Virus record (IMG/VR): IMGVR_UViG_3300025087_000051
DNA: 64,000 bases
Strand: one strand, 5' to 3'
DNA from: a virus
Taxonomy: Duplodnaviria; Heunggongvirae; Uroviricota; Caudoviricetes
Both the position numbers and the translations under genes were made by a program. The notes beneath the pieces were generated by a model. It saw only the letters and a program-made list of their open reading frames with translations, ran no database searches and had not been told where the DNA came from. Positions 2,376-55,142 of this stretch are shown here, in pieces (within the stretch, counting starts at the first letter, position 1; each line of letters begins with the position of its first letter).

Positions 2376-2495
2376 TATGGATAAAAATCTTCTTAAAAAA
2401 TCAGGCACAGTAGCGGTAATAATTATTTTCTGTCTAGTCGTTGGATGGTTCGGTATCGAACTTTCAGAAATATTGTATTGGAGGGTAGATTGATC

Positions 2496-3077
2496 ATGAA
2501 TAAATGTTTAAAACTTAAAAGCACACGGCATGATTTTTTTAATTTACCGGAAAACAAAATTCCGATAAATGAGTATGAAAAAGAAGTAGCTCTATCTAAA
2601 ACTGAATTGTATAAAGTTTTCGACATGGTGTTGAGAAAGAATGCGAAAACATTCACATCAAGAGAAAGCATATTTCTGGCGAATCAGCGTACATTTATTC
2701 AAACATCTGGCAAAATAACCGTTCCTATAGCTGTTGGCAGTGTTTATGGAACAGCAACAGTAATAGATTATACTTTGCCATTGAGGAGTGAAGGGTTTGT
2801 ACATGAGTTCGGTATTGGATATGTGACTCCGAACGGACAAGAAAAAATATTACTAAATTTCCTAGTCAATGATAAGATTGAACCAGGACTGTCCCAGCAA
2901 AGGTTTACTGAGTCTTTTGATACGCCACGACCTATAAAAATTCCACTGCCATCGAATAGTACCAATCTTAAAGTTATTGCATATAATATTGATGATGTAG
3001 CGCCATACGAAATCAAGGTTACAATGGTTGGATACTGGCAATATTTAGAATCTGATAAAGACCAACTAATCAAATAA
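2496..3077 (+). CDS. hypothetical protein
   Basis: ORF 2445-3077; GGAGGG RBS precedes internal ATG at 2496. Confidence 0.45.
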   Translation: MNKCLKLKSTRHDFFNLPENKIPINEYEKEVALSKTELYKVFDMVLRKNAKTFTSRESIFLANQRTFIQTSGKITVPIAVGSVYGTATVIDYTLPLRSEGFVHEFGIGYVTPNGQEKILLNFLVNDKIEPGLSQQRFTESFDTPRPIKIPLPSNSTNLKVIAYNIDDVAPYEIKVTMVGYWQYLESDKDQLIK

Positions 3078-3078
3078 C

Positions 3079-3804
3079 ATGAAAAAATATAAATTCTTAT
3101 CATATTTTTTTTTGTTTGTATCGTTCTTTGGGTTAATTCATGGTGTAAATGCTGAAATTGCTAAAACATTACTAGGCACAACCACGACCAATCCGACCGG
3201 AACATATACGTCCGCGCCAAAACCAACGACCGGTTATACCTGGTTTCGCGGACATATCATAACGGATGGTAGTAATGGGGCAGAAAATCAACCTACTGGA
3301 TATATTGAACAATCGCTCAATCCATCAGCGCCATTGAGTTATCACGGTACGAACACGATTACTTTTTCGAGGTCGGGACAGCTTTGGACAGGTTCGATAA
3401 ATTCTGCAATTATTGGACAATATGCAAGGCTGGTAATTGGTAATTTTGGCGATGCCTCGTTATTGGCTATTAACTGGTTCGTAACACCAGAAACGTCTGT
3501 CAGCACTACGTTAAATCTTACTACGACCCCAATTGCTTCGGGTACAGTGAAAACGGTAGGAATGTCAAGCATAACATTGATAGAAGCTAATACGAGTCGA
3601 AAGTATATACTAATAATTAATACGGGTAATCAAGATTTGTACGTAGACCCTGATAGTCCTGCTGATTCTAATACTGCACGCATATTCATTTCTGGTGGTA
3701 ATGGTTCGTATGAAAAAGAAAGCATGGCATCTATTTATACCGGTGCATTTTATTGCATAACGGCTACGGGAACAACAGAAGTGAGGGTATTTGAAAATAA
3801 TTAA
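3079..3804 (+). CDS. secreted protein with N-terminal signal peptide; paralog of 5231-6094 (tail-fibre/adhesin-like?)
   Basis: signal peptide MKKYKFLSYFFLFVSFFGLIHGVNA; shared motifs NPTGTYTS...YARLVIGNF with 5231-6094. Confidence 0.55.
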   Translation: MKKYKFLSYFFLFVSFFGLIHGVNAEIAKTLLGTTTTNPTGTYTSAPKPTTGYTWFRGHIITDGSNGAENQPTGYIEQSLNPSAPLSYHGTNTITFSRSGQLWTGSINSAIIGQYARLVIGNFGDASLLAINWFVTPETSVSTTLNLTTTPIASGTVKTVGMSSITLIEANTSRKYILIINTGNQDLYVDPDSPADSNTARIFISGGNGSYEKESMASIYTGAFYCITATGTTEVRVFENN

Positions 3805-9327: not shown

Positions 9328-9524
9328 GTAACAGATTTGTTTTTGATAAAGAATTTAAAGAAAAACTGAACGCTGTAAATGAAGCTGCACACAAATATTT
9401 TAAAATAAAAGCAGAATATGATGAAGCCACTGATAAATTACATTTACTCCTAGATAAACAAAAAGAAACCGATAAAGAATTATACCAACTTGTGAACTAC
9501 TCTAACCAATCAGAGATTGGATAG
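9324..9524 (+). CDS. hypothetical protein (3' end overlaps tnpB convergently)
   Basis: 66-aa ORF, start overlaps previous stop. Confidence 0.35.
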   Translation: MSNRFVFDKEFKEKLNAVNEAAHKYFKIKAEYDEATDKLHLLLDKQKETDKELYQLVNYSNQSEIG

Positions 9525-9640
9525 GGCTTCTTGGTTCTCAGGCAGCATCTGGCATAAGCTGCCTCCCCAAGCGTAACTTTCCGTAGTTCCTACGGTAGAT
9601 TTTTTTAGAATATTTAGTGAGGCATTGTGGTCTCTATCAA
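9440..9640 (-). ncRNA. putative omegaRNA/reRNA scaffold overlapping tnpB 3' end
   Basis: hairpins GGCAGC-11nt-GCTGCC and CCGTAG-GAA-CTACGG inside/after the last 35 codons of tnpB, the usual omegaRNA position; exact ends not determinable. Confidence 0.35.
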
Positions 9641-10670
9641 GAGTAGTACCACAAGCAAGACAAAAATGAATTCTATCTCTAAGTGTTTTCGGCACATGGT
9701 TGCCACAATGACTGCAATTTATGCTCGTGTGATGAGGCGCAACCTTCTCAAACTGAATACCAGCTTCTTCCGCTTTGTATTTCAGAAATCCGAGAAATTG
9801 TCCCCAACCAGCATCCGAAATGCTTTTGCTCAAGTGCCTATTTTTTACCATGCCTTTGATATTCAAATCTTCAACGGCAATAAAACCATAGATGTTTACA
9901 ATTTTGCGGGAAATCTTATGATGAAAATCAGACCTTTGATTTCTTATTTTGCAATGAAGTTTAGCAATCTTGATTCTTGCTTTTTTTCTGTTACGAGACC
10001 CTTTTTTCTTTTTAGAAAGCTGTCTTTGTTTAGAGACAAGTTTCTTTTCAGATTTACGAAGATATTTAGGGTTGTCTATAACTTTACCATCAGAAAGAAC
10101 AACAAAGGAGTGAATACCAACGTCAACACCAATAGCCTTATTGGGTATAGGCTTTGCGACAGGCTCGTATTCGACGGAAAAGCAGGCATACCATTTATCA
10201 ATCTCTCTTTTGATGGTGCAAGTCTTTATAATTCCAATAATGGGACGATGTATTTTTATTTTGACCGTTCCTATCTTGGAAAGCCTAAGACCTTGTTCTG
10301 TTATTTGAAATGCAGGTTCTTGTGGATAAGTAATGGAATCGTATCTGCCTTCATTTTTGAAACGTGGATAACCAACTTTTTCACCTGTTTTTATTCTGCG
10401 AAAGAAGCCCTGGAATGCTCTTTCAACTCTAAACAAAACATTTTGAAGAACTTGGGCATTAATATCATAGAGAAATCCCATCCTTTGTTTGTCGGATGTC
10501 AAAATCTTTTGTTGCTGTATTCTAGTAAGGCTTTTGCCCGATTGTTCATAGTTTCTTTTTCTATCAAACAGACAGGAATTGTAAAGGACTCGACATATTT
10601 CAAGAGTATGTTCAAGTACCTTCACTTGTTTTGTTGTAGGGTTTATTCTAAATTTGTAAGTTTTATGCAT
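9510..10670 (-). CDS. tnpB: TnpB (IS200/IS605 OrfB-family RNA-guided RuvC nuclease)
   Basis: RuvC-I GVDVGI, RuvC-II AVEDLNIKGM, zinc finger CSHCG...CLACG, RuvC-III RDHNASLNIL; N-terminal FRINPT...VLYN typical of TnpB. Confidence 0.9.
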   Translation of the reverse strand: MHKTYKFRINPTTKQVKVLEHTLEICRVLYNSCLFDRKRNYEQSGKSLTRIQQQKILTSDKQRMGFLYDINAQVLQNVLFRVERAFQGFFRRIKTGEKVGYPRFKNEGRYDSITYPQEPAFQITEQGLRLSKIGTVKIKIHRPIIGIIKTCTIKREIDKWYACFSVEYEPVAKPIPNKAIGVDVGIHSFVVLSDGKVIDNPKYLRKSEKKLVSKQRQLSKKKKGSRNRKKARIKIAKLHCKIRNQRSDFHHKISRKIVNIYGFIAVEDLNIKGMVKNRHLSKSISDAGWGQFLGFLKYKAEEAGIQFEKVAPHHTSINCSHCGNHVPKTLRDRIHFCLACGTTLDRDHNASLNILKKSTVGTTESYAWGGSLCQMLPENQEALSNL

Positions 10671-10671
10671 C

Positions 10672-10791
10672 TATTTTTTTCTGTTCCAATAAGGACTTTT
10701 ACATTTAGGGCAAATAACAACCTCAGACTTTCTTGGTGTCCATAGATGTTTGCATCTTTCACAGGCAAGTTTAATAATTTTAATTTTCATA
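10672..10791 (-). CDS. zinc-ribbon micro-ORF immediately upstream of and abutting tnpB
   Basis: 39-aa MKIKIIKLACERCKHLWTPRKSEVVICPKCKSPYWNRKK, CxxC...CxxC; stop abuts tnpB ATG (coordinates approximate to 1-2 nt). Confidence 0.3.
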
Positions 10792-11290: not shown

Positions 11291-11785
11291 ATGATACCGA
11301 TACTACTCGCTTCTTTGGGAATATTTTTATATTCAAATTCACCAATTAACGATACAGAGATTAAGCCGTGTAGAAATTACTGCTGTGAGAATATTTTGTT
11401 TTTTGTCGTTAAAGATATTAATAATGAAGAACTGGTAACGACTCAACACGGATCGGATTGTGTAATTCTAAATGGCACTAGATCAAGCAAGATAAGAGCC
11501 ATTATAAAGAATAGGAAAAATGATGATGTGTTGTGCTGGCTTTGTAACGGAGAACAATTAAATTATGATAAAGAATGCGGATCGTGGTGTTGTAAGCATT
11601 ATGGTTTTGTCGTTGATTTTAGGACTGGGCTGATTCATTATTTAAACTGTGATATGATTAAAGATATGCCGATTTATGACGCTATGTTTAAACCGAAAAG
11701 ATTTGATTTGATTGATGGATATAAGAAATTGGACTATTCGGGATTGTGTTTGTTTTGTTTGGGTGGATTTGCCAGATTAAATTAA
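11291..11785 (+). CDS. cysteine-rich hypothetical protein
   Basis: 164-aa ORF, many Cys pairs (CRNYCC, CWLCNG, CGSWCC). Confidence 0.45.
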   Translation: MIPILLASLGIFLYSNSPINDTEIKPCRNYCCENILFFVVKDINNEELVTTQHGSDCVILNGTRSSKIRAIIKNRKNDDVLCWLCNGEQLNYDKECGSWCCKHYGFVVDFRTGLIHYLNCDMIKDMPIYDAMFKPKRFDLIDGYKKLDYSGLCLFCLGGFARLN

Positions 11786-11786
11786 A

Positions 11787-11884
11787 AGGCCTTCGGGGGG
11801 TTTTTCTATCGGGGTAATGACGGTGGCGGTGATTAGTGGGGAATAACGCCGTGTGCCATGCAAGTGTAGTCGGCTATCGCCGAC
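11787..11884 (+). repeat. structured intergenic element, copy A (family of four)
   Basis: GC-rich hairpin+GGGGTTTTT, conserved TCTATCGGGGTAATGA, AACGCCGTG, 3' hairpin GTCGGC-TATC-GCCGAC; homologous to 12560-12680(-), 32609-32721(+), 54733-54847(-). Confidence 0.6.
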
Positions 11885-11959
11885 AGATCAATAAATAATT
11901 AACAAGGAGGCGTGGAATGGCAACCGATATGAGGATAGCCAAAGAAATATTAAAGCAAA

Positions 11960-12220
11960 TTGGGCGGGAATAGATTCATAACAATGACAGGTGCTAAAAA
12001 TTTAGCCGCAAGCGACAATGCTTTAACTTTTAAAATAATGAGAAACAGCAACGAGGTGACTCATGTAAAAATTGAATTGAATTTTATGGATACTTACGAC
12101 ATCACCTTTTACAGCATCGCAGGCATTAATATAAAAAAGGAGTATACGGTTCGTGGTGTTTATTTCGACCAATTACAAAGTGTATTTACCATGCACACGG
12201 GACTCGATACACATTTATAA
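11960..12220 (+). CDS. hypothetical protein
   Basis: 86-aa ORF between element copies A and B. Confidence 0.4.
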   Translation: MGGNRFITMTGAKNLAASDNALTFKIMRNSNEVTHVKIELNFMDTYDITFYSIAGINIKKEYTVRGVYFDQLQSVFTMHTGLDTHL

Positions 12221-12234
12221 TATGGGACAATCTT

Positions 12235-12546
12235 ATGAACAGAGAAGAACGACAGCTTTACAATTTTATAGACAAATTTAAACGTCATATCCAGAAACAT
12301 CTCAATTTTTCTCCGATGGGATTGTCGAACCTTCACCATTTTTCGGATCGCCTATTGGATAAATGCGATGGTGATTTTGAGATAAATTTTGAATTATTTC
12401 GGAAAAATATCAAAGAAATGGTGCGAGAGTCGGAACCGATCTCTGTACATGGGTATAATATTTTAGATATGTTGTTGTTGTTTGTGAAAAAAGGTGAGAA
12501 TGTTAACGATTTTATCAATTATGTTTATTGGATATACGAAGACTAA
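12235..12546 (+). CDS. hypothetical protein
   Basis: 103-aa ORF. Confidence 0.45.
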   Translation: MNREERQLYNFIDKFKRHIQKHLNFSPMGLSNLHHFSDRLLDKCDGDFEINFELFRKNIKEMVRESEPISVHGYNILDMLLLFVKKGENVNDFINYVYWIYED

Positions 12547-12559
12547 AAGAGAATTAACC

Positions 12560-12680
12560 GCCTGCGACAGCAGGCTACATCTTGGAATAACCCACGGCGT
12601 TGCAAGTACGTTTGTTTCGGCGCAACTTCATTACCCCGATAGACAAAACCCACAGCCGATAGGCTGATTTAGAAGAGATT
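12560..12680 (-). repeat. structured intergenic element, copy B (inverted relative to A)
   Basis: reverse complement reads CAGCC-TATC-GGCTG TGGGTTTTGTCTATCGGGGTAATGA ... CAACGCCGTGGG ... GCCTGC-TGTC-GCAGGC. Confidence 0.6.
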
Positions 12681-12711
12681 TAAAAGAATTTTTTTATTAA
12701 GGAGAAACGTC

Positions 12712-13026
12712 ATGGGATATAGTTGTGCTAAAGCGGCAGGAGATGTTTTAGATTCTTTGTCGCGGTATAATGCAAATTTAGGAAAAAAGTATCCATCGAA
12801 TGGTTGGTATTACAGGGGAAAAGATTATTTTTATGAAGTTGGAAAAGAAAATTATGATGGAGCGATTACTGGTGGAGTATACGATAGAAAGGGGTATAAA
12901 GCTGGAACTTTTCGTATCGAACCAAACGGATCTGTTTCGAGAGGAGCGGGTGGATTGAAAACAATTCTGAATCTTCTAAAAGAACCATTTATTGAAATAT
13001 CTGATTGGAGAAATTGGAAATTATAA
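12712..13026 (+). CDS. hypothetical protein
   Basis: 104-aa ORF with AGGAGA RBS. Confidence 0.4.
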   Translation: MGYSCAKAAGDVLDSLSRYNANLGKKYPSNGWYYRGKDYFYEVGKENYDGAITGGVYDRKGYKAGTFRIEPNGSVSRGAGGLKTILNLLKEPFIEISDWRNWKL

Positions 13027-14074: not shown

Positions 14075-14734
14075 ATGGATCGAAAATTAGCAGAATTTTT
14101 ATCTAAAAAATTCAAAATTGATATTTCTCAAATAGTAAGAGAGTTTTGGGAAATGGTAATATTGTATGAAATATCAAAATCTTCTGTAGGTAAGTGGTTG
14201 ATATTCAAGGGTGGCACAGCGTTAAGACTTTCTTATAATTCTCCAAGATTTTCGGAGGATTTAGATTTTTCTTTAATACGAGACAAATTAAATATTAACC
14301 AATTTAAGAAATTGTTGGTAGATATAATTAATGAATATCCAAATGTTTCAATTGATGATTTTTGTGAAAAATATAATACATACTTTGGGGAATTAAAAAT
14401 AATTGATAATATTTTGCCATATCCATTTAGGCTAAAAATAGAAATATCAAAGAGAAAGATCAGTAGCTATGCTTACGAACCAAGATTTATTGTATCGGAC
14501 GCAGTACCGGCAAGATTTATAATGAATGTTTTCACAGTAGATCAAATATATAAAGATAAAGAGGATTGTATCAAAACAAGAGCAAAACCGAGAGACTATT
14601 TCGATCTGTGGTATATTTCTCAAATAATTGGATTACCATATAAATTTAAAAGTAAAATTAACAAGATAGAAATAGTCAGAGAAATGAGAAAATATTTGCC
14701 TAGAAATTTGTACCAAGTAATAGATTTATTGTAA
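14075..14734 (+). CDS. abiEii: AbiEii-family nucleotidyltransferase (type IV toxin, DUF1814-like)
   Basis: FKGGTALRLSYNSPRFSEDLDFSL = hGGTAL...SEDLDF NTase signature. Confidence 0.7.
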   Translation: MDRKLAEFLSKKFKIDISQIVREFWEMVILYEISKSSVGKWLIFKGGTALRLSYNSPRFSEDLDFSLIRDKLNINQFKKLLVDIINEYPNVSIDDFCEKYNTYFGELKIIDNILPYPFRLKIEISKRKISSYAYEPRFIVSDAVPARFIMNVFTVDQIYKDKEDCIKTRAKPRDYFDLWYISQIIGLPYKFKSKINKIEIVREMRKYLPRNLYQVIDLL

Positions 14735-14736
14735 AA

Positions 14737-15303
14737 ATGAATATAAAAGAATTGATAAAAATATTCAAGAGCATGGATAAGTCTTTTTATACGAAAAGGG
14801 ATTTGGAGATAATTACTAAGTTATCGGAAAAAAGATTAAAATTATTAATTGATGAACTTTTGAATCTTGGTATTATCGAAAAAGTTGCAAAAGATGTTTA
14901 CGTGGTGTTTTATTCTTATTATCAAATAGAGGAAATTGCGTCTACTTTATATTTACCTAATTATTTATCTTTTGAATCAGTATTGGCAAGATATGACGTA
15001 TTGAATCAGATACCTTACATAATAACATTTGCTACTATCAAACAATCGAAAAATATTGTAGTTGCGAAAAGACAAATAGAGTTTATACAAATTCCGAAAG
15101 ATTTGTTTTGGGGATATGTGGTGTCGGGAAACATTTATGTGGCAGAACCAGAAAAGGCTTTTCTCGATTTGGTTTATATCGCATCAATCAAAAATTATCA
15201 AATAGATATGGATGAAATAAATTTAAAAAGATTATCGAAAAAGATTTTATTGGAATATTCAAAAAGATTTCCAATAAAAATACAGAAAATACTTGCGGCG
15301 TAA
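14737..15303 (+). CDS. AbiEi-like antitoxin/transcriptional regulator (wHTH + C-terminal domain)
   Basis: N-terminal HTH-like segment; C-terminal ESVLARYDVLNQIPYIITFAT...IQIPKDLFWGY resembles AbiEi C-domain; 3-nt spacing to abiEii. Confidence 0.5.
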   Translation: MNIKELIKIFKSMDKSFYTKRDLEIITKLSEKRLKLLIDELLNLGIIEKVAKDVYVVFYSYYQIEEIASTLYLPNYLSFESVLARYDVLNQIPYIITFATIKQSKNIVVAKRQIEFIQIPKDLFWGYVVSGNIYVAEPEKAFLDLVYIASIKNYQIDMDEINLKRLSKKILLEYSKRFPIKIQKILAA

Positions 15304-22074: not shown

Positions 22075-22075
22075 T

Positions 22076-24517: not shown

Positions 24518-24564
24518 TTGACTTGAATTTTTTTTGTGATATAATGTGATACAGTGAATCACAC
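24518..24564 (+). promoter_or_regulatory. sigma70 promoter with extended -10 plus operator (TGTGAT x2 direct + ATCACA inverted)
   Basis: TTGACT-16nt-TGATATAAT then TGTGATACAGTGAATCACA. Confidence 0.55.
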
Positions 24565-24593
24565 AGATAATAAAAAAGGAAAATGATACAAAG

Positions 24594-24813: not shown

Positions 24814-24850
24814 TTGACTATGTGATATAGTGTGATACAGTGAATCACAT
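24814..24850 (+). promoter_or_regulatory. second copy of promoter/operator module
   Basis: TTGACT then TGTGATATAGTGTGATACAGTGAATCACA (29/29 core identical to first copy bar 1 nt). Confidence 0.45.
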
Positions 24851-24897
24851 AAAATTTAAAAGCAAAACGATATTGGAGGGAGACGAGGAGACATAAG

Positions 24898-32594: not shown

Positions 32595-32608
32595 TGAACC
32601 ACCTTAGT

Positions 32609-32721
32609 TAAATGTCGCCTGTGGCGGGGGTTTTGTTTGTCGGGGTAATGGGACGGTACGAATACAAACAAGCAGTCAACGCCATTGGGCATACGAAACA
32701 ATATGGCTGGCTGTCGCCAGC
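32609..32721 (+). repeat. structured intergenic element, copy C
   Basis: AAATGTCGCCTGTGGCGGGGGTTTTGTTTGTCGGGGTAATGG ... CAACGCCATTGGG ... GCTGGC-TGTC-GCCAGC; ~85% identical to reverse complement of copy D over first 42 nt. Confidence 0.6.
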
Positions 32722-32739
32722 AGTTAAGAAGAAATAAAA

Positions 32740-32982
32740 ATGAAAATAATAATCATTAAGGATTGTTTAGATTGCCCGCTGTGTGAAGTAGAAACAGACG
32801 CTAAGGGTAGTTATTTTAGATGTACGAGCCATGCCATTGATAATTCTGGGTTTTTAGGCAGATCGGTTCGTTCAGTTTTTATTCATAATAGTAAAATTAA
32901 AATACCTAAATGGTGCAAATTATCAGATATAAAAGACGGAAGCAGGGAATTTCAAAAATTAATTAATAAATATTTTACTTAA
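32740..32982 (+). CDS. Cys-rich small protein
   Basis: 80-aa ORF starting 19 nt after element C. Confidence 0.4.
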   Translation: MKIIIIKDCLDCPLCEVETDAKGSYFRCTSHAIDNSGFLGRSVRSVFIHNSKIKIPKWCKLSDIKDGSREFQKLINKYFT

Positions 32983-32996
32983 TTCGGAGAATTAAT

Positions 32997-33365
32997 ATGA
33001 AAAAGTATGTGTTTTTGGCTTGTGTATCATTATTATTTTGTAGTTTATCTTATGGCTATGATGCTTTATTTACGTGCCACCAATGCCTAAAAGAAAGAAA
33101 AGATTATATAAGTACATCCGAGAATGTCAATCGTATCGTCCTGGACGAAGAATGGCTTTATGGTAAGTTCGGGGTTAAAATAATAAACAAAAAATATTAC
33201 GATTCAAAAGGAGATTTACATAGACATTCTTATAGCGGATTTCCCGAACAAGTTACATGCTCAAATGGTCACGATTGGTATATTTTTTATTTCATGAGGT
33301 GTAATGACGAGTGTAAGTGGCCAGACGGAAATGTAAGGTTTGATGAAATAAAAAGGGAGAAATAA
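32997..33365 (+). CDS. secreted Cys-rich protein
   Basis: signal peptide MKKYVFLACVSLLFCSLSYG. Confidence 0.45.
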   Translation: MKKYVFLACVSLLFCSLSYGYDALFTCHQCLKERKDYISTSENVNRIVLDEEWLYGKFGVKIINKKYYDSKGDLHRHSYSGFPEQVTCSNGHDWYIFYFMRCNDECKWPDGNVRFDEIKREK

Positions 33366-33526
33366 ATTGAAATACATCGCATATTCTTTACTAGGTGTTA
33401 TGTGGATGGCTGCTACCGTTGCTCTAGCCTTTTCAATTATCGGAATCTTTGTCCTGATATTTTCAGAAACCTGGCGGAAGCTTATCCAGGGTATCTTGTC
33501 TGGAATGAGAGAGGAATCGGAAAACC

Positions 33527-33811
33527 ATGACTCCATACTATAAAATATATTACAGAAAAAATAGGAAAAGAATAATAGCAAGGAATCGGGAATATTATTT
33601 TAAAAATAGGGAAAAATGGCTCGTTCACGCCAAAGAATATAACCGGAAATATCCAGAGAAAAGAAAATTAGCCTTTGGGAAATGGTACAAGAAAAACAAA
33701 AGCAAGGTAAAAAAATATAATGCTCAATACTTCATAGCTAATAAAGATAAAATTTACAAGAGAAGAAAAGAACTAGAAATTAAAAAATTAATAATGAAAG
33801 GACTGGTATGA
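33527..33811 (+). CDS. highly basic Lys/Arg/Tyr repeat protein (nucleic-acid binding?)
   Basis: YxxxNRK-type repeats, pI clearly very high. Confidence 0.4.
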   Translation: MTPYYKIYYRKNRKRIIARNREYYFKNREKWLVHAKEYNRKYPEKRKLAFGKWYKKNKSKVKKYNAQYFIANKDKIYKRRKELEIKKLIMKGLV

Positions 33812-33812
33812 A

Positions 33813-34229
33813 ATGGAAAATGATTTTAGAAAAGCACGAATTGGTGATAAAGTATTTCATATAATGTATGGATGGGGAGAAATATCAGAGTTAAATTCGA
33901 ATACTTTTGGGGTAGTATTTACAGATAAAAATAATAAGCGCATCACTTCGTGGTTTTTTTACAATGGAAAGTCTGATAGCAACTATATAAATCCTTCTGT
34001 TTTTTGGGACGAAGCAATAATTACGCCCCCACCAAAACCAAAAAGGAAAGTAGAAAAAATATTGGAGGGGTGGTTGAATATTTATCCTAATAAAACATGC
34101 AACAACGACCTTTCCGCAATGTGTTACAGTTTGTATAAATCGCAAGACTTGGCCGATAAAACAGCGCGTAAAGAAAGAAGAATCGGAGAGTCCTGTTATG
34201 TGATCCATAAATACACAATCGAAGAATAG
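33813..34229 (+). CDS. hypothetical protein
   Basis: 138-aa ORF. Confidence 0.45.
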   Translation: MENDFRKARIGDKVFHIMYGWGEISELNSNTFGVVFTDKNNKRITSWFFYNGKSDSNYINPSVFWDEAIITPPPKPKRKVEKILEGWLNIYPNKTCNNDLSAMCYSLYKSQDLADKTARKERRIGESCYVIHKYTIEE

Positions 34230-34251: not shown

Positions 34252-34461
34252 TTGAGAAGTTTAACGACTCAGTCACAAGTATCGAATATACAAGCAGAAA
34301 ATCTAATGGTTGATATCAGTGCTGTAAAAAAACTGCTCAAACAGTACGAAAATTGTTTGATTGGAGAATTAAAAACAAGCGATGAACTTGCCGAAAAGAT
34401 CAGGCTGGAATTGTTAATAGATGATGCTGTGAAGGCACAGATGGGAGTAGCTGATGAGTAA
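34252..34461 (+). CDS. hypothetical protein
   Basis: 69-aa ORF. Confidence 0.3.
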   Translation: MRSLTTQSQVSNIQAENLMVDISAVKKLLKQYENCLIGELKTSDELAEKIRLELLIDDAVKAQMGVADE

Positions 34462-35008: not shown

Positions 35009-35037
35009 TTGACAAGATTGAAAAAGGTGTGTATATT
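35009..35037 (+). promoter_or_regulatory. consensus-like sigma70 promoter driving RHH-tnpB
   Basis: TTGACA-17nt-TATATT. Confidence 0.55.
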
Positions 35038-35045
35038 CGCTGTAT

Positions 35046-35171
35046 ATGAAACGTATCAATTGCCATTTAACAAATCTTCAAATCAAACAATTAAAAAAAC
35101 TATCAAAAGAAGTTGGGCTGTCGGTTGCTGAAATTATTCGCCGAGCAATAGATGAATATATAACAAAATGA
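35046..35171 (+). CDS. ribbon-helix-helix micro-protein translationally coupled to tnpB
   Basis: 41-aa MKRINCHLTNLQIKQLKKLSKEVGLSVAEIIRRAIDEYITK; stop TGA overlaps tnpB ATG (ATGA). Confidence 0.45.
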   Translation: MKRINCHLTNLQIKQLKKLSKEVGLSVAEIIRRAIDEYITK

Positions 35172-36292
35172 AAAAGACATTTCTTTATCGTGCGAAAATA
35201 AACAGACAGACAGAATCTAATTGCTGTCGATGGATTGAAATTTGTCGTGATGTTTATAACTCCGCATTAGGGCAAAGAATTAATACGTACAAGGAAGCCG
35301 GAAAATCTATAACCAAAAACAATCAAGTAACACAATTACCTTTAATTAAAAAAGATTTTCCAAGTATTAAGATAGTTAGCTCTCAAACACTTCAAGATGT
35401 GATTGAACGTCTCGATAAAGCCTATAAAGCATTTTTTCGTAGAGTAAAGTTTGGAGAAAAAGCCGGATTTCCCCGTTTTAAGAATCGAAACAGCTATAAT
35501 TCCTTCACCCTTAAACAGCATGGATATAAACTTGATGGTAGGTATTTATATATTAAAAACATTGGCAGGTTCAAACTCTTTCTTTCCAGACCGATTGAAG
35601 GAAACGTCAAAACCGTTACCATCAGAAAGATGCCTACAGGTAAATGGTATGTATCTTTTTCTTGTGATGATGTTTCTGCCAAGCAAGTCTCAATAACCGA
35701 TAAAATCATAGGAATAGACGTAGGAATTAAAAATTTCTGTGTTGACAGCGAAGGAACATGCGTTAAAAACCCTAAATTTTTATTTGATTCTGAAAAAGAA
35801 CTTAGACGTAAACAGAGAAAACTTTCCAGAAGAAAAAAGTGTTCTAGCCACTGGAACAAAGCAAAAATATTAGTTGCTAAAGTGCATGAAAAAATAACAA
35901 ATCAAAGAAAAGACTTTTTACATAAGATTACCAATAAATATATTAATAATTTTCAAACTATTTATATTGAAGATTTAAAGATTAAAAATATGGTTAAAAA
36001 TAGATATTTGAGCAAATCTATTTCAGACAGTAGTTGGGGTACTTTCTTTCGGTTTCTTTCTTATAAAGCTGAAAATGCTGGTAGGAAAGTAATTAAGGTG
36101 AACCCTGCCAATACTTCACAAAAATGTTCTACTTGCGGAGAAAAAGTCCAAAAATCTTTATCTGTTCGTATACATTCGTGTTCTTTTTGTGGCTTGAAAA
36201 TAGATAGAGATTTGAATGCTGCAATAAATATAAGTCAGGATGGGCAGTCCTGTCAGGCATTAACTAATGATATGTTAGAATTGGTAGCCTGA
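35168..36292 (+). CDS. tnpB: TnpB (second, divergent copy; ~40% identity to 9510-10670)
   Basis: IGIDVGI, YIEDLKIKNM, CSTCG...CSFCG, RDLNAAINI. Confidence 0.9.
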   Translation: MKKTFLYRAKINRQTESNCCRWIEICRDVYNSALGQRINTYKEAGKSITKNNQVTQLPLIKKDFPSIKIVSSQTLQDVIERLDKAYKAFFRRVKFGEKAGFPRFKNRNSYNSFTLKQHGYKLDGRYLYIKNIGRFKLFLSRPIEGNVKTVTIRKMPTGKWYVSFSCDDVSAKQVSITDKIIGIDVGIKNFCVDSEGTCVKNPKFLFDSEKELRRKQRKLSRRKKCSSHWNKAKILVAKVHEKITNQRKDFLHKITNKYINNFQTIYIEDLKIKNMVKNRYLSKSISDSSWGTFFRFLSYKAENAGRKVIKVNPANTSQKCSTCGEKVQKSLSVRIHSCSFCGLKIDRDLNAAINISQDGQSCQALTNDMLELVA

Positions 36293-36400
36293 GTATCTTT
36301 TGATTTCAACTACAAGGAATGTCAAATATCGTATATACGTAAAAGCCTTGCAAAATAAGGGAAAATCCACAAAATAATAATATGAAAACCAATACCGAAA
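36293..36400 (+). ncRNA. possible omegaRNA 3' portion / right end of TnpB element
   Basis: CAAGG-28nt-CCTTG hairpin just after stop; boundaries unknown. Confidence 0.3.
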
Positions 36401-36603
36401 TTACGATATGTCAATCCCGAAAAACACTTGCAAAAGGAATCATAGAAATAGCATTAGATGAGTGCATTCAAAAAATTAACCAAGAAATCGAACAAGAAAA
36501 ATCAGAATCAGTAAAATATACAGTGTCTCCACTTTATATAAATGGACTTACAAAGGCGAAAAATATTATTAGTGAAATGAAACGAATTGTGAGTTCAAAA
36601 TGA
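36382..36603 (+). CDS. hypothetical protein, tandem paralog of 36625-36825
   Basis: shared E.L.ECI.EI..EI and AKNII.EMKR blocks. Confidence 0.4.
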   Translation: MKTNTEITICQSRKTLAKGIIEIALDECIQKINQEIEQEKSESVKYTVSPLYINGLTKAKNIISEMKRIVSSK

Positions 36604-47082: not shown

Positions 47083-47289
47083 ATGACAACAGACAATATA
47101 AATCATCCGCCACATTACAAATCAAACGGTATGGAAGCTATTGACGTGATAGAGGCGTTTGGTCTTGGATTTCATCTTGGTAATGCCATGAAATACATTC
47201 TTAGAGCTGGCAGAAAAACAGAAGACGATACGGAAGATACAAAAAAGGCTATTTGGTATTTAAATCGTTATTTAGGAGAAAAACAGTGA
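47083..47289 (+). CDS. DUF3310-like phage protein
   Basis: NHPPHYKSNGMEAIDVIEA pattern recalled from phage DUF3310 family (from memory). Confidence 0.45.
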   Translation: MTTDNINHPPHYKSNGMEAIDVIEAFGLGFHLGNAMKYILRAGRKTEDDTEDTKKAIWYLNRYLGEKQ

Positions 47290-48824
47290 AAATAATTAAA
47301 CCGTCAATTGAAATTTTAGACGTATTAGACCAAACCACTATTTTGAAAAGATTGGAATTAGTTGGAAGGACTTGCTATAAATCAGAAGATAAAATAACCG
47401 ATAATTCTTGTGTTGAGTTTATCAGAAAGATTATTAAGTCTGGACACCATTCCATAATTGAACATTACGATATTTCGGTTAGAGTAATATGTGATAGGGG
47501 CGTTACCCACGAAATAGTTAGACATAGAATAGCCAGCTATGCTCAGGAATCTACACGATATTGTATATCGGGAGACATGGGTTTATCTTTTAAAAATCCT
47601 CATCAAAAATTTACTGTGAGCCAACTTTATAACAATCGAATTAACTCAAAAAATAATTCGTGGAAAAGAATGTTTATTAAACAACTTAACGAAGACACCG
47701 GATATATCACTTTTGACAAAATAAAAAATATTGTTTATACAGGATTTAAAGAGGTAGTAAAAATTACTACTTCTCTTGGGTATTCTCTTATTGTTACGCC
47801 AGATCATAGAATAAAAACCAGTTATGGATATGCAAGGGCAGACAGTTTAGCGGGAAGGGAGATAGCTGTAAATGGAATTGGAATTTGTACAACAAAACAT
47901 GCCTACCAAGATAAAGATTGGCTTAAATATCACTATATTGTGTTAAACAAAACAGCAGTACAAATTGCCAATGATTTAAAAGCTAGTACCTCTGCCGTTA
48001 AGAAATGGATAAGATTGCATGGCTTTGCGAATACTAAACCAAAAAGCTATTGGAATAAGGGAAGAAAACCCTGGAATAAAGGACTTACCGAAAGCAATGA
48101 TATAAGAATCAAAAAACAAGGAGATGCCCTACGAAAATTCGGATATAGAAAAGGAGAAAAAAAAAGACAGAAAACAATATCTATAAGAACTTATCATAAA
48201 ACCGTAAAAGATAAATGTGTTTTGTGTGGAGGTTGTTTATCCCTTCATGTTCACCACAAAAACAGCAACAGGATGGATAATTGTACTGACAATTTGATAA
48301 CCTTATGCCCCTCTTGTCATGGGGGTGTCCATAATAAAAATCTATCATTTGTATATTTTGATAAAGTAGTATCCATAGAAAAATTGCCTAATACTATTCC
48401 TGTTTATGATATTGAGATGGGAGGGCAATATCATAATTTTGTAGCAAACGGTGTGGTTGTGCATAACTGTAATTATGCAAGCGGTAAATTTGGAAATGAA
48501 ATCACTGTTATTGAACCTTGTTTTTGGAATATAGATAACGATGAAAAGATGTTAGTATGGGAATTAGTCATAAAAGCCTCAGAAGCCGCATATCTCAAAC
48601 TTATAGAACTTGGAGCAACTCCACAAGAAGCGAGGAGTGTGCTTCCAAATTCTTTGAAAACAGAAATAATTGTTAAATTCAATCTTCGAGAATGGAGACA
48701 TTTCTTAACTTTGAGAACTTCTAGGGCTGCTCATCCACAAATGAGAGAAGTGACAAACATGATACTAACAGAGTTTAAATCAAAATTACCAATTATTTTT
48801 GAGGATATATCCAATGAAAATTAA
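47253..48824 (+). CDS. thyX: flavin-dependent thymidylate synthase ThyX interrupted by an HNH intein
   Basis: N-extein IVRHRIASYAQESTRY (RHRx7S...SxRY ThyX motif); C-extein ARSVLPNS...NLREWRHFLTLRTS; exteins total ~221 aa. Confidence 0.8.
   Translation: MVFKSLFRRKTVKIIKPSIEILDVLDQTTILKRLELVGRTCYKSEDKITDNSCVEFIRKIIKSGHHSIIEHYDISVRVICDRGVTHEIVRHRIASYAQESTRYCISGDMGLSFKNPHQKFTVSQLYNNRINSKNNSWKRMFIKQLNEDTGYITFDKIKNIVYTGFKEVVKITTSLGYSLIVTPDHRIKTSYGYARADSLAGREIAVNGIGICTTKHAYQDKDWLKYHYIVLNKTAVQIANDLKASTSAVKKWIRLHGFANTKPKSYWNKGRKPWNKGLTESNDIRIKKQGDALRKFGYRKGEKKRQKTISIRTYHKTVKDKCVLCGGCLSLHVHHKNSNRMDNCTDNLITLCPSCHGGVHNKNLSFVYFDKVVSIEKLPNTIPVYDIEMGGQYHNFVANGVVVHNCNYASGKFGNEITVIEPCFWNIDNDEKMLVWELVIKASEAAYLKLIELGATPQEARSVLPNSLKTEIIVKFNLREWRHFLTLRTSRAAHPQMREVTNMILTEFKSKLPIIFEDISNEN
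47562..48467 (+). other. intein (302 aa) with HNH homing-endonuclease domain inside thyX
   Basis: starts CISGDMG (block A), HVHHKNSNRMDNCTDNLITLCPSCHGGVHN HNH, ends VYDIEMGGQYHNFVANGVVVHN followed by +1 Cys. Confidence 0.8.
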
Positions 48825-53263: not shown

Positions 53264-54070
53264 GTGGCTACAGTAAAATCTGAGAAAAGAGTTTCAACAT
53301 ATCATGGGATTGAAAACTTATTCACCCCTGATGTTTTTTTCAACTTGATGGGCTGGACAGACAGAGAATGTCATACGGAAAGAATAAGATATGCAATTAG
53401 TAATTTTCATTATGCAGCAGGAGAAAAATTATCTTTTATTTTTGGAACTGAAAAGTTTGGAAATATTACAAGGGCAATAACAAGTTTGGGTGTTTTGTCT
53501 TTGGCTAGGTTTCACAATATTACCAATGAACAGATAGAAAAAATCATAGAAGATAGTAAGGGGAAAGGTTTTGAATTATTGAAAAAAGAAATTGAGTATA
53601 TTTGTTCATGTAGAAATATACATGCAGATAAAATAAAAGAAAAATTAACCGATATTACAAGTTTGTATGGTGGTAATAAATATAATAATATTTTGCGTAC
53701 AATGCTGAACATGAATGCAAATGATAGTGATATGGAAAACAGAAAAACAATAAATATCAACGCATTCCAGTTTAATACTATTTGCGAAAAAGAATTGAAT
53801 GAAAATATGTATAAATTGCAAAGAAATAGCGAAAATTGCGTTGTGAATATTTATATATCTAAAATCGTAAGCCATATCAATAATAAAATAAGAACTAACT
53901 ATAGGCGAAACGATACAAAATCTGAAATATGTCGTGGAGCGCACGTTGCAGGTTTGTATATTGTTTCAAAATGGATAATAAATGGTACATTGCCAAAGTA
54001 CGATGAATATTATTCGGCAAGTTTATTGTCTGATATTAAAGATGTTGTCTATTCTAATATTAAAGGATGA
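53264..54070 (+). CDS. hypothetical protein (GTG start)
   Basis: 268-aa ORF; AAAGGAACGGTGATGTGGCTACA. Confidence 0.45.
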   Translation: MATVKSEKRVSTYHGIENLFTPDVFFNLMGWTDRECHTERIRYAISNFHYAAGEKLSFIFGTEKFGNITRAITSLGVLSLARFHNITNEQIEKIIEDSKGKGFELLKKEIEYICSCRNIHADKIKEKLTDITSLYGGNKYNNILRTMLNMNANDSDMENRKTININAFQFNTICEKELNENMYKLQRNSENCVVNIYISKIVSHINNKIRTNYRRNDTKSEICRGAHVAGLYIVSKWIINGTLPKYDEYYSASLLSDIKDVVYSNIKG

Positions 54071-54400
54071 AAATGGCTAAACGTCTTTATGTCTTTATGA
54101 CTTTATGTCTTTATGTCTTTATGGCTGTACAAAGGGATGGAAATCAAAAATTTTCATCCGTTTATATGGCTAAACGTCTTTATGTCTTTATGACTTTATG
54201 TCTATATGACCGAATGGTCAAATGTCTTTATGACTTTATGGCTAGTATAAAGGGATGCTAGAAACGTGTAACGTAGTAAGGAAAATTTTTTCCTGTGTTT
54301 TTGTTAAATAAGTTGATAATGGCTAAATGACTGTATGGCTGTATGACTATGTGGCTAAATGACTAAATGGCTAAATGACTAAAAAGAACGAGGTACTTAA
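54070..54400 (+). repeat. tandem/micro-satellite-like repeat array (iteron-like)
   Basis: 38-nt ATGGCTAAACGTCTTTATGTCTTTATGACTTTATGTCT exact duplicate at 54073 and 54166; 8-10-nt units (GTCTTTATG, ACTTTATG, GGCTAAATGAC x3-4). Confidence 0.7.
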
Positions 54401-54402
54401 AA

Positions 54403-54573
54403 ATGATAAATCCAAGTACAATGAGTAACGGTAAGCCAACATGCTGTCCCTTCTGTTTGAGACCTTACGTTGAGCTTGACGGCAAAATAGTACCGGAATG
54501 TCTTTGTGGATCGTACTTTACAGCTAAAGAATTATGCGGCAGGCATGGGGTGAAGAATTGTCCAAGATGTTAA
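54403..54573 (+). CDS. zinc-ribbon micro-protein
   Basis: 56 aa; CCPFC ... CLC ... CPRC. Confidence 0.35.
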   Translation: MINPSTMSNGKPTCCPFCLRPYVELDGKIVPECLCGSYFTAKELCGRHGVKNCPRC

Positions 54574-54732
54574 ATCAAAACCAATACCTAAGGAAACGCT
54601 ATAATATTCGATTTAAGCCGTTTTTCTATTTCGGCGTGTCTGGGTCGAGGGATGGTGTCCATGTGGCAAATTTCATTAAAAGCGATACGCTTGGCAGTGT
54701 TATTTTTGATTGTGGTGGATGTCGGCGATCTT

Positions 54733-54847
54733 CGGCTGGCGATAGCCAGCAACATTTGTTGTGTCCCGCCCACGACGTTGACTACTTGTTTGTGTTGCAA
54801 CGGCACATTACCCCGATAAACAAAACCCCCGCCACAGGCGACATTTG
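54733..54847 (-). repeat. structured intergenic element, copy D (inverted)
   Basis: reverse complement AAATGTCGCCTGTGGCGGGGGTTTTGTTTATCGGGGTAATGT ... CAACGTCGTGGG ... GCTGGC-TATC-GCCAGC. Confidence 0.6.
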
Positions 54848-54879
54848 GTTATTGTTTTTGAATTATTTAATTTTTGCTA

Positions 54880-54908
54880 TTGACAGTTTCTAGAAAACAA
54901 ATTATATT
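54880..54908 (+). promoter_or_regulatory. sigma70-like promoter
   Basis: TTGACA-17nt-TATATT. Confidence 0.5.
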
Positions 54909-54959
54909 CTTGTTTGTTTGGAATATTTTATGTTTATTTTATTAAAAGGAGAAATTTTT

Positions 54960-55142
54960 ATGGTACTGTCCGTCCTCGAGGAAGTGGAAAGTTTCAAAAA
55001 TATTACTATTAGTGTTCCGGTGGATCAATACAAAAGATTGCAAGAAATAGCGAGAAGAAGCACTCTGTCGATTTCAAAGCTTGCAAAAAAAGGAATTGAG
55101 TTAGTGTTGAATGAATACGAATACGAATTCAAGAAATCTTAA
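54960..55142 (+). CDS. ribbon-helix-helix DNA-binding protein
   Basis: AAAGGAGAAATTTTT-ATG; ITISVPVDQYKRLQEIARRSTLSISKLAKKGIELVL RHH pattern. Confidence 0.45.
   Translation: MVLSVLEEVESFKNITISVPVDQYKRLQEIARRSTLSISKLAKKGIELVLNEYEYEFKKS

Follow-up and report, generated by a model that had tools for sequence, protein, structure and literature searches.

Structured intergenic repeats are well known in bacterial chromosomes (REP, BOX and Correia elements) and, to our knowledge, hardly described in phages. What, then, are the four related elements that lie between the genes of the Caudoviricetes record IMGVR_UViG_3300025087_000051? We analysed a stretch of 64,000 nt of this viral DNA (hereafter, the window), for which a preliminary description had proposed a four-copy family of intergenic elements with covarying hairpins. 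The four copies belong to an undescribed, lineage-restricted family found in one clade of ~78-kb aquifer/groundwater phages. We tentatively read them, with a probability of about 35%, as strand-specific structured RNA modules that would form an intergenic repeat in the style of REP and BOX and be functional in place. They are not canonical terminators, not classical MITEs (transposable elements of the miniature inverted-repeat type) and not tied to the two TnpB elements of the window.

Four copies of one element in the window

A covariance model of the family (R1), run over the whole window, returned exactly four copies, at the places and with the shared architecture of the preliminary description. 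Copies A (11778-11886, plus strand; 43.8 bits, E=1e-7; nhmmer E=5.6e-20) and C (32608-32723, plus strand; 86.7 bits) run with the genes, and copies B (12558-12673, minus strand; 88.4 bits) and D (54733-54848, minus strand; 90.6 bits) run opposite to them, two copies per orientation as had been noted. All four are indeed intergenic, between plus-strand open reading frames (ORFs), with an ATG 33 nt past A and 18 nt past C. Nine relatives carry an orthologue of A at the same site, B likewise has nine orthologues, C has orthologues in contigs L092, L101, L072, L114 and L136, and D has one in L054. The mean column identity of the four window copies in the alignment is 71%. A chance origin of this likeness is excluded: the 11-mer TCGGGGTAATG occurs four times in the window against 0.61 expected, a count reached by 0 out of 100 shuffles, and the pattern of the 3′ hairpin gives six hits against 0.23 expected (the four sites plus two palindromes that match the other strand too).

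Read on its own strand, the element (~115-125 nt) begins with AAWTT at positions -5 to -1, directly 5′ of a first hairpin, H1. Its stem has 5 bp, with a span of 4-7 bp in certain copies and of 2-3 bp in the A-type, and its free loop has 3-4 nt. There follow one base, the invariant GGGTTTT, R-Y-Y-Y-N and the invariant core TCGGGGTAATG; the two invariant blocks keep a fixed spacing in all 51 distinct sequences of the family. A variable centre of 49-57 nt, which carries an A-rich ACAAAYY motif, leads to a CA-rich linker (GGAC(A/G)CAACAAC in most copies, then ~5 nt, often TGTAG) and to the last hairpin, H4, with a 6-bp stem, a T(A/G)TC loop and a following A. The preliminary description had recognised both terminal hairpins and had missed a third, internal one, H2, which RNAalifold detected as UURYYY / NUCG / GGGUAA.

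In copy A, H1 (11790-11797), as read from the sequence, closes a TTCG loop with a short CC/GG stem, after which come GGG (11798-11800) and TTTTT (11801-11805); H2 (11802-11817) pairs TTTTCT with GGGTAA around ATCG with one U-U mismatch, the core lies at 11809-11819, and H4 (11869-11884) reads GTCGGC-TATC-GCCGAC. Copy B has the H1 CAGCC-TATC-GGCTG (12653-12666), then T GGGTTTT, the core as the 3′ side of H2 (12629-12639) and the H4 GCCTGC-TGTC-GCAGGC (12560-12575). The H1 of copy C is CGCC-TGT-GGCG (32616-32626), then GGGGTTTT, with the core at 32640-32650 and the H4 GCTGGC-TGTC-GCCAGC at 32706-32721. Copy D shares the H1 (T)CGCC-TGT-GGCG(G) (54829-54841) and the H4 stem (GCTGGC-TATC-GCCAGC, 54735-54750), with the core at 54806-54816. 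The 3′ stems (GTCGGC/GCCGAC, GCCTGC/GCAGGC and, twice, GCTGGC/GCCAGC), with TATC or TGTC loops, are thus as first given, and so are the conserved blocks GGGGTTTT (TGGGTTTT in B) and (T)NTNTCGGGGTAATG. A 5′ hairpin of 4-5 bp with a TRTN loop, as first proposed, describes neither A, with 2-3 bp and TTCG, nor C and D, with their TGT loop; the 'CAACGCCGTGGG-like' block is there in the four copies but is weakly conserved across the wider family.

A family confined to one clade of groundwater phages

Homologues were sought with the pattern GGGTTTTN{4,5}TCGGGGTAATG, then with a profile and then with R1. Further homologues exist and keep the compensatory pairing, which the preliminary description had made the touchstone of its proposal. 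The family comprises 53 copies (51 distinct), all in groundwater phage contigs syntenic with the window phage at 70-85% nucleotide identity. About 45 of the 75 metagenome hits of the pattern are true homologues, from Hainich groundwater metagenomes of wells H41, H43 and H51, with sample names marked '01um' or '02um'. Outside metagenomes only three phage-like contigs matched, which were also the sole hits in 185,579 species genomes; all three had been assigned to the metagenome-assembled genome (MAG) 'Patescibacteria group bacterium P6-11'. These JANLHG01 contigs (L136, L137 and L167) are syntenic with this phage and represent phage DNA that was either binned together with a candidate-phyla-radiation genome or is integrated in one; they are the only hint of a host. 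All other pattern hits, in 241 million metagenome records and in those species genomes, arose by chance in coding DNA, as did all 51 pattern hits in IMG/VR, which held no true homologue. INPHARED gave no match to the family, and a protein-based search for relatives in public phage collections returned nothing. Since the family is confined to the phage clade and no bacterial chromosome was found to carry it, it is not a host repeat taken up by a phage.

Exact-protein look-ups placed the window in a genome of 78.4-78.6 kb (L169, L170 and L172-L174), assembled with different start points in Rifle ANAN16-1, JGI 3300025073 and ERZ2725474x. Its recovery with varying start points from many aquifer assemblies marks it as a complete or nearly complete phage genome and suggests that it is circular or terminally redundant. 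Neither INPHARED nor IMG/VR returned this genome. R1 found a fifth copy in the same genome, ~4.6 kb beyond the end of the window (L169 15435-15552), whose core is slightly degenerate and whose H4 stem, GTGGGC/GCCCAC, is a fourth variant; the window phage thus carries five copies in 78 kb. The next start codon beside this fifth copy (L169 ~15551) lies 5 nt from H1, so the ribosome-binding site is likely to fall within the complement of H1. At L136 2730-2760, the upstream gene enters a reverse-oriented element and takes its stop from the TAG in the H4 loop (GATAG).

Four subtypes were distinguished by their centres, namely the A-type (copy A), the B-type (copy B), the C/D-type and 'main', and the orthologues of A and of B form separate conserved lineages. 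There are at least six different H1 stems, including CAACC, CAGCC, CAGTC, CCAAC, CCGAC and CGCC, and four kinds of H4 stem. The four bases before H4 are most commonly GTAG (~30 out of 48 copies), with GCAG, ATAG, ACAG, GTGG, ATGG, GTCG and GTTG also seen. B-type copies in relatives have three or four short direct repeats (ACTCTTTTAAAA-like) just outside the H1 side (L167 6330-6380, L121 2830-2880 and L057 7180-7230), which are weaker in the window (12674-12700). That no known RNA family had been recognised agrees with Rfam 15 (4,227 models), which gave no match at the gathering score over the whole window and nothing over a copy at E<=10 around A and B or at E<=5 in four loci with main-type and B-type copies. 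The Rfam model CRISPR-DR did not hit the element in the A/B region, and ARAGORN found no tRNA or tmRNA.

Compensatory change in the terminal hairpins

From the four window copies alone, covariation could only be suspected, since n=4 and two of them are nearly identical at the 5′ end. The preliminary description had taken their compensatory changes as the signature of a structure; four copies are insufficient as proof of this, but the 51 distinct homologues bear it out. We used as seed 19 sequences in a gap-free, independent MAFFT alignment, in which 99.4% of the H1 and H4 cells pair and six pairs are changed on both sides. The seed contains 32 double-change cells against 8.7 in shuffles, its covariation score was reached by 0 out of 500 shuffles, and pairing falls to 26-56% when the partner is slid by 1-3 columns. 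The alignment of the 51 distinct sequences, which was fitted to the model and thus leans towards structure, has 98.8% of the H1 and H4 cells paired, six to seven pairs changed on both sides and 73 double-change cells against 18.7 in shuffles (0 out of 500 reaching the observed score), with pairing of 25-56% after sliding by 1-3 columns. At orthologous sites, stem changes are fully compensated: the ~3077 site has CAGCC or CAGTC, and the site at 34454 has CAGCC, TCAACC or CGCC as its H1 stem among relatives. These covarying hairpins point to a nucleic-acid structure rather than to a plain protein-binding sequence.

The internal hairpin H2 varies on its 5′ side only and almost always preserves pairing (A/G opposite U, C/U opposite G). 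Its cells pair in 299 out of 306 cases, 102 of them as G·U and none as A·C, and on a rough estimate the chance that its four degenerate positions and two fixed U-A pairs should align in this way with the invariant block is ~2e-3. Since there are 102 G·U and no A·C, H2 folds on one strand only.

These observations bear on whether the element could be a double-stranded site for a phage DNA-binding protein (a regulator, a partition or a packaging protein), composed of GGGTTTT-N5-TCGGGGTAATG and accessory palindromes. Two invariant blocks at fixed spacing in 51 out of 51 sequences are what such a site would have, its function would be independent of orientation, and the window encodes several small ribbon-helix-helix (RHH) and zinc-ribbon proteins. 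However, palindromes that change in sequence while keeping their complementarity are unfit for sequence-specific binding, the four degenerate positions of H2 are exactly those at which pairing with the invariant block is kept, and a length of 115 nt with a conserved far hairpin is foreign to such a site. We regard this explanation as highly improbable.

A long-range helix of 9-10 bp, P3, would close the centre in the copies that we call group 1 (for example, UCUUGUGC/GCGCAGGA against UCUUAUAC/GUAUGAGA). It is 86% paired, has three doubly changed pairs and contains 23 G·U against 9 A·C; we treat it as plausible only. On the complementary strand, H2 and P3 would be filled with mismatches. Loops of the C(UUCG)G type occur in H2 and in the H1 of the A-type, and by its RNAalifold energies the element strand is the favoured one in each of the four subtypes, a strand that is also the richer in G+U. 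Because DNA would form a weak hairpin where one pair in three is G·T, we infer that the single-stranded form is RNA rather than single-stranded DNA (ssDNA). Two further candidate features were discarded: a helix between the 5′ end and the CAACGCCGTGGG block, which came from minimum free energy (MFE) folds of single sequences and was dropped in favour of the H1 that covaries in 51 sequences, and a small ORF from an invariant ATG in the element, which indels break among A-type orthologues.

Conservation in place and turnover between relatives

Orthologues are conserved more strongly than paralogues, which are only ~65-75% alike within one genome. Compared with the window, the orthologues of copy A are 86% and those of copy B 82% identical, while in the neighbouring genes identity is 56-68% at third, 78-84% at first and 86-92% at second codon positions. 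As the identity of the orthologues exceeds that of third codon positions, each copy is under purifying selection in place, a behaviour that does not fit a decaying selfish repeat.

Occupancy nevertheless differs among relatives at no fewer than four sites, where relatives have copies and the window has none: between genes 2445-3077 and 3079-3804, near 22075, at 34454 and at ~50.1-50.6 kb. Where two junctions were examined, the whole intergenic spacer is missing from the window and no target duplication is visible; with the entire spacer absent, insertion and deletion are indistinguishable there. Accessory genes have been gained or lost at the borders of the element (11918-12220 after A, 12712-13026 beside B and 32740-33900 after C). 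The gene after A is frameshifted in the window (ATG at 11918, stop at 11972, with reading resumed in the frame of 11960-12220), and L057 and L121 have no gene corresponding to it. Copies also exchange sequence with one another. Over its first 46 nt, D is 93% identical to C (inverted repeat I1), the L054 orthologue of D has a different H1 and a different H4, and 5 nt after the H4 of D lies ATCGCCGAC (54721-54729, minus strand), the 3′ half of an older H4 of the GTCGGC type and the scar left when a C-like copy converted D.

Such turnover is what one would expect of non-autonomous mobile DNA in the style of REP/REPIN or of PATE elements derived from IS200/IS605, moved as ssDNA by a host HUH/Y1 enzyme with the end hairpins as substrates. 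Besides the occupied and empty sites and the resident copy replaced or converted by another, this account draws on the strictly intergenic location in both orientations, on hairpins near both ends of one strand that at times share the same TATC loop, on the conserved AAWTT right 5′ of H1 as a possible target site, and on the presence of IS200/605-type TnpB elements in the same genomes. Against it, paralogues so far apart and orthologues conserved like codon positions 1-2 imply long residence under selection with no recent bursts, and the empty sites, with their whole spacer missing, show no clean insertion junction or target duplication. The existence of at least six H1 and four H4 stems argues against one sequence-specific transposase, H2 would be weak as DNA, and the invariant internal core is left without explanation. 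We therefore hold mobility of this kind to be unlikely.

The related proposal of a MITE-like element keeps its support from presence and absence among relatives and lacks several other features of that class. There are no terminal inverted repeats (TIRs): AAWTT-H1 and H4-A are not mutual reverse complements, each hairpin being complementary to itself only. The signature of a MITE burst is absent, with five copies per 78-kb genome and none near-identical, and no target duplication was seen at the two junctions. Nor did Pfam recognise a transposase (Y1, RAYT or DDE), a reverse transcriptase or an HUH enzyme among essentially all ORFs of the window, the other 14 kb of the genome or 61 additional ORF clusters of the relatives, the clusters giving nothing but methylases, Mom, a GIY-YIG/NUMOD3 endonuclease, lectin-like tail proteins and a helicase. 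The genes of transposition or recombination type found by Pfam in the window and the clusters are two TnpB, a tyrosine integrase and HNH and GIY-YIG endonucleases. The wider search for a partner enzyme, which also covered primase and RNA polymerase, came out negative in the window, the rest of the genome and the relatives.

The two tnpB genes (9510-10670, minus strand, and 35168-36292, plus strand) are full-length by Pfam, with HTH_OrfB_IS605, OrfB_IS605 and Cas12f-like TNB domains. Each is preceded by a small gene behind a near-consensus sigma70 promoter (a zinc-ribbon gene at 10671-10790, minus strand, and an RHH gene at 35047-35170, plus strand), TnpA was not found with either, and there are relatives that lack the 35026-36603 insert, which holds one tnpB unit. 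The TnpB elements end in hairpins of the CCAAT...ATTGG type and then ...GTAGTTCAC, unlike H1 and H4. R1 had no hit at either tnpB 3′ end, the nearest copies being more than 1 kb away, and since the tnpB ends and 3′ regions show no similarity to the element, a TnpB omega-RNA (reRNA) was rejected as its identity. A TnpB element in L056 ends 25 nt from a copy, an adjacency that looks incidental. An integron attC site, an invertible segment and a parS site were likewise rejected, as core-site motifs are lacking, the cargo is never inverted in relatives and the palindromes vary.

Orientation, plausible antisense transcription and possible termination

Copies run with the local genes in 23 cases and against them in 29, or, counted as independent sites, in ~4 and at least 9; group-1 copies are all antisense to genes and retain H2 and P3. 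By their strictly intergenic location and use of either orientation, the copies appear to behave as REP/BOX-type repeats. Both orientations are a general property of the family and its central puzzle. One would expect a single orientation of a terminator, a processing site or a leader, so the element is not a signal that acts only in cis on an mRNA. Convergent pairs are frequent (A/B, C with the 34454 site, and the 50-kb sites with D), but as only three are independent, the pattern carries no weight in our argument.

Antisense transcription is plausible, because the minus strand of the window has 27 sigma70-like matches, one of them perfect (TTGACA-16-TATAAT at 33130-33103), where ~0.02-0.1 perfect matches are expected by chance. 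This promoter lies inside gene 32997-33365 and is aimed through gene 32740-32982 at the H4 side of C, which favours some stop function there.

A stop function is the essence of another explanation, a two-way terminator or insulator in which H1 and GGGUUUU would act from the 5′ side and the complement of H4 with its U-rich tail (the complement of ACAACAAC) from the other, the hairpins protecting mRNA ends. The preliminary description had listed a bidirectional terminator cassette among its candidates, and part of this stands: both hairpins were flagged as terminator-like on opposite strands, at 4, 2 and 2 sites against 0.8, 0.3 and 0.5 expected in a lax scan. GGGTTTT is invariant, strictly Watson-Crick H1 and H4 suit hairpins that need strength or must fold on both strands, a two-way stop works in either orientation, and the complement met from the 33130-33103 promoter is a hairpin followed by CAUAUUGUUUCG. 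Yet H1 is followed by a 4-nt spacer (N+GGG) and only four U, its stem is 2-3 bp in the A-type, and in this genome's canonical terminators 5-7 T in a row start at most four bases from the stem. The genes 33 nt past A and 18 nt past C have no promoter between them and the element, so polymerases must read through A and C. On the reverse strand, the tail is rich in U in the main and C/D types only, not in the A- and B-types, and neither TCGGGGTAATG, H2 nor the conserved centre has a part in termination. Termination as the whole explanation is accordingly improbable in our judgement. D alone among the window copies is followed by a strong promoter (TTGACA-17-TATATT, 54880-54908, plus strand), which lies 33 nt beyond it and drives the RHH gene 54918-55142. 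The layout of promoter and RHH gene is like that before the TnpB units.

A strand-specific fold that is yet independent of the direction of transcription would also suit an ssDNA signal for replication or recombination, such as a primase or primosome entry site. Sites of the G4 type and the ssi sites of RSF1010 are strand-specific, multi-hairpin structures of ~40-140 nt and can be inverted pairs. The conservation of copies in place and the convergent pairs fit this picture, and D adjoins an iteron-like array of 8-nt repeats. This array, with repeats ATGNCTTT / ATGGCTAAA of ~8-nt period at 54057-54390, lies upstream of gene 54403-54573 and D and has the look of iterons or of an array bound by a protein, perhaps at an origin; these repeats probably account for ORF 54067-54261, as an artefact. 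Set against this, the GC skew is monotonic across the window while the orientations of the copies are interleaved, Pfam recognised no DNA polymerase, primase or RNA polymerase anywhere in the 78-kb genome, H2 with its many G·T pairs would be unstable as DNA, and 5-10 or more sites per 78-kb genome would be unusual. We consider such a signal very unlikely.

A tentative reading as strand-specific RNA modules

According to the RNA-module reading, the element strand would specify a modular fold of AAWUU, H1, GGGUUUU, H2 built on UCGGGGUAAUG, the centre, the linker GGAC-ACAACAAC and H4 with its UAUC or UGUC loop. The active form would be RNA of the element's own strand, a small structured module capped by hairpins, and the invariant unpaired and loop sequences may be the recognition surface for a partner, either a protein or a nucleic acid, through which the RNA would act. 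Copies against the genes would be transcribed from the antisense strand. Recombination would spread the family, with copies exchanged, converted and lost along with neighbouring accessory gene cassettes.

Several observations weigh against this reading. Upstream of H1 there is no conserved promoter and no positional -35/-10 signal besides AAWTT, although the real promoters of this genome are near the sigma70 consensus, and a sigma70 promoter of the element's own was therefore ruled out; nor is there a U-tract after H4. H1 and H4 are Watson-Crick in 508 out of 512 cells, an uncommon state for helices of RNA and one that DNA hairpins, or palindromes kept on both strands, would fit as well. This strictness could reflect a need for great stability, folding on the other strand too, or replication errors that correct palindromes. 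The variation of H2 on one side only is not fully separable from a protein site with purine/pyrimidine degeneracy. Column-pair scans and RNAalifold runs per subtype gave no central-domain fold common to the subtypes, only differing, weakly supported helices among which the P3 of group 1 has moderate support; against shuffles, P3 is without significance (51 out of 500). Finally, copies taken singly have unremarkable MFE z-scores (-0.5 to -2.8).

A bolder form of the RNA-module reading, which we find doubtful, makes the copies genes for a new class of trans-acting phage small RNAs that would display GGGUUUU and UCGGGGUAAUG, perhaps to act as decoys or sponges that titrate a defence factor of the host, either RNA-binding or RNA-guided. 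One conceivable target, suggested by a putative similarity of repeats, is a type V CRISPR effector in hosts of the candidate phyla radiation. CasY and CasX systems both come from aquifer organisms. We take UAUCGGGGUAAUG to be like the 3′ part of the CasY/Cas12d repeat and, presumably, GUUUUACUUAUCGG is complementary to part of the CasX repeat, two tentative leads of which our argument makes no use. The five bases between the invariant blocks vary so as to keep H2, not so as to keep any external CRISPR-repeat match. A new ribozyme is another possibility under the RNA-module reading.

The family combines three properties that make an unusual trio: compensatory evolution, strand-specific pairing and coding-like conservation of each copy in either orientation. 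Together they would imply an unsuspected antisense transcription in these one-strand phages, or else a role as ssDNA. If the RNA did act in trans, it would represent a new phage RNA class from poorly known groundwater phages. Even with a modest role, such as transcript punctuation or the marking of cassette borders, the 51-sequence covariance model could be curated as a new RNA family. The family is also a marker of its clade and a case of gene-cassette turnover beside conserved non-coding modules.

Other features of the phage genome

The window is AT-rich (~32% G+C) and packed with small plus-strand ORFs. Beyond the genes already mentioned, Pfam identified ThyX with an intein (47253-48824), a DEAD/Helicase_C_2-type helicase with a LAGLIDADG intein (59906-62611), a DNA methylase, a SNF2/ResIII-type helicase, an AAA/SMC-like ATPase, a PDDEXK (DUF3799) protein, an ERCC4 nuclease, an RNA ligase and a radical-SAM protein. 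The HNH endonuclease and the tyrosine integrase are also window genes. An AbiEii-type nucleotidyltransferase toxin (14075-14734), followed by an ORF of 188 aa (region 14075-15303), is possibly part of a phage-borne type IV toxin-antitoxin pair with it. A 41-nt direct repeat, 85% identical between 24535-24575 and 24821-24861, has TGTGAT...ATCACA palindromes that overlap a TTGACT-16-TATAAT promoter, and its sequence looks like that of an operator.

Comparison with known systems

Among bacterial repeats, REP, BIME and REPIN sequences come close to the element as short, GC-rich extragenic palindromic repeats that occur in both orientations, often as inverted pairs, are co-transcribed with genes and are conserved in structure. 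A REP, however, is a single palindrome of ~35 nt with a conserved 5′ GTAG and a cognate RAYT, known from enterobacteria and pseudomonads, whereas the phage element is a 115-nt composite with a non-palindromic invariant core, a variable GTAG and no RAYT found. BOX, RUP and Correia/ERIC elements share with it a modular build of ~100-150 nt, an intergenic location, a predicted RNA fold, occurrence in either orientation and presence or absence between strains. They differ in their TIRs or long imperfect palindromes, their target duplications and their tens to hundreds of similar copies, while the phage element has no TIRs, five copies per genome, divergent paralogues and strongly conserved orthologues.

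Within phages, the PeSL motifs of the T4 type are also stem-loops repeated between genes that flank variable accessory ORFs, a situation met here at A, B and C. They are direct repeats of an early promoter and a hairpin, all pointing along transcription, in contrast to an element with no promoter found, both orientations and a much larger conserved fold. The ends of IS200/IS605 elements, PATEs and omega-RNAs resemble it in having strand-specific subterminal hairpins at both ends, with TnpB in the same genomes; here the hairpins are others, no copy abuts a tnpB 3′ end and there is no TnpA. Rho-independent bidirectional terminators likewise have GC-rich hairpins with U-containing tails on both strands, but the phage element has its 4-nt spacer before four U, is read through at A and C and keeps a large conserved interior. 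Lastly, the element resembles the solitary CRISPR-repeat units of viruses, or RNA anti-CRISPRs (Racr), which are small, structured, RNA-like units found between phage genes in any orientation.

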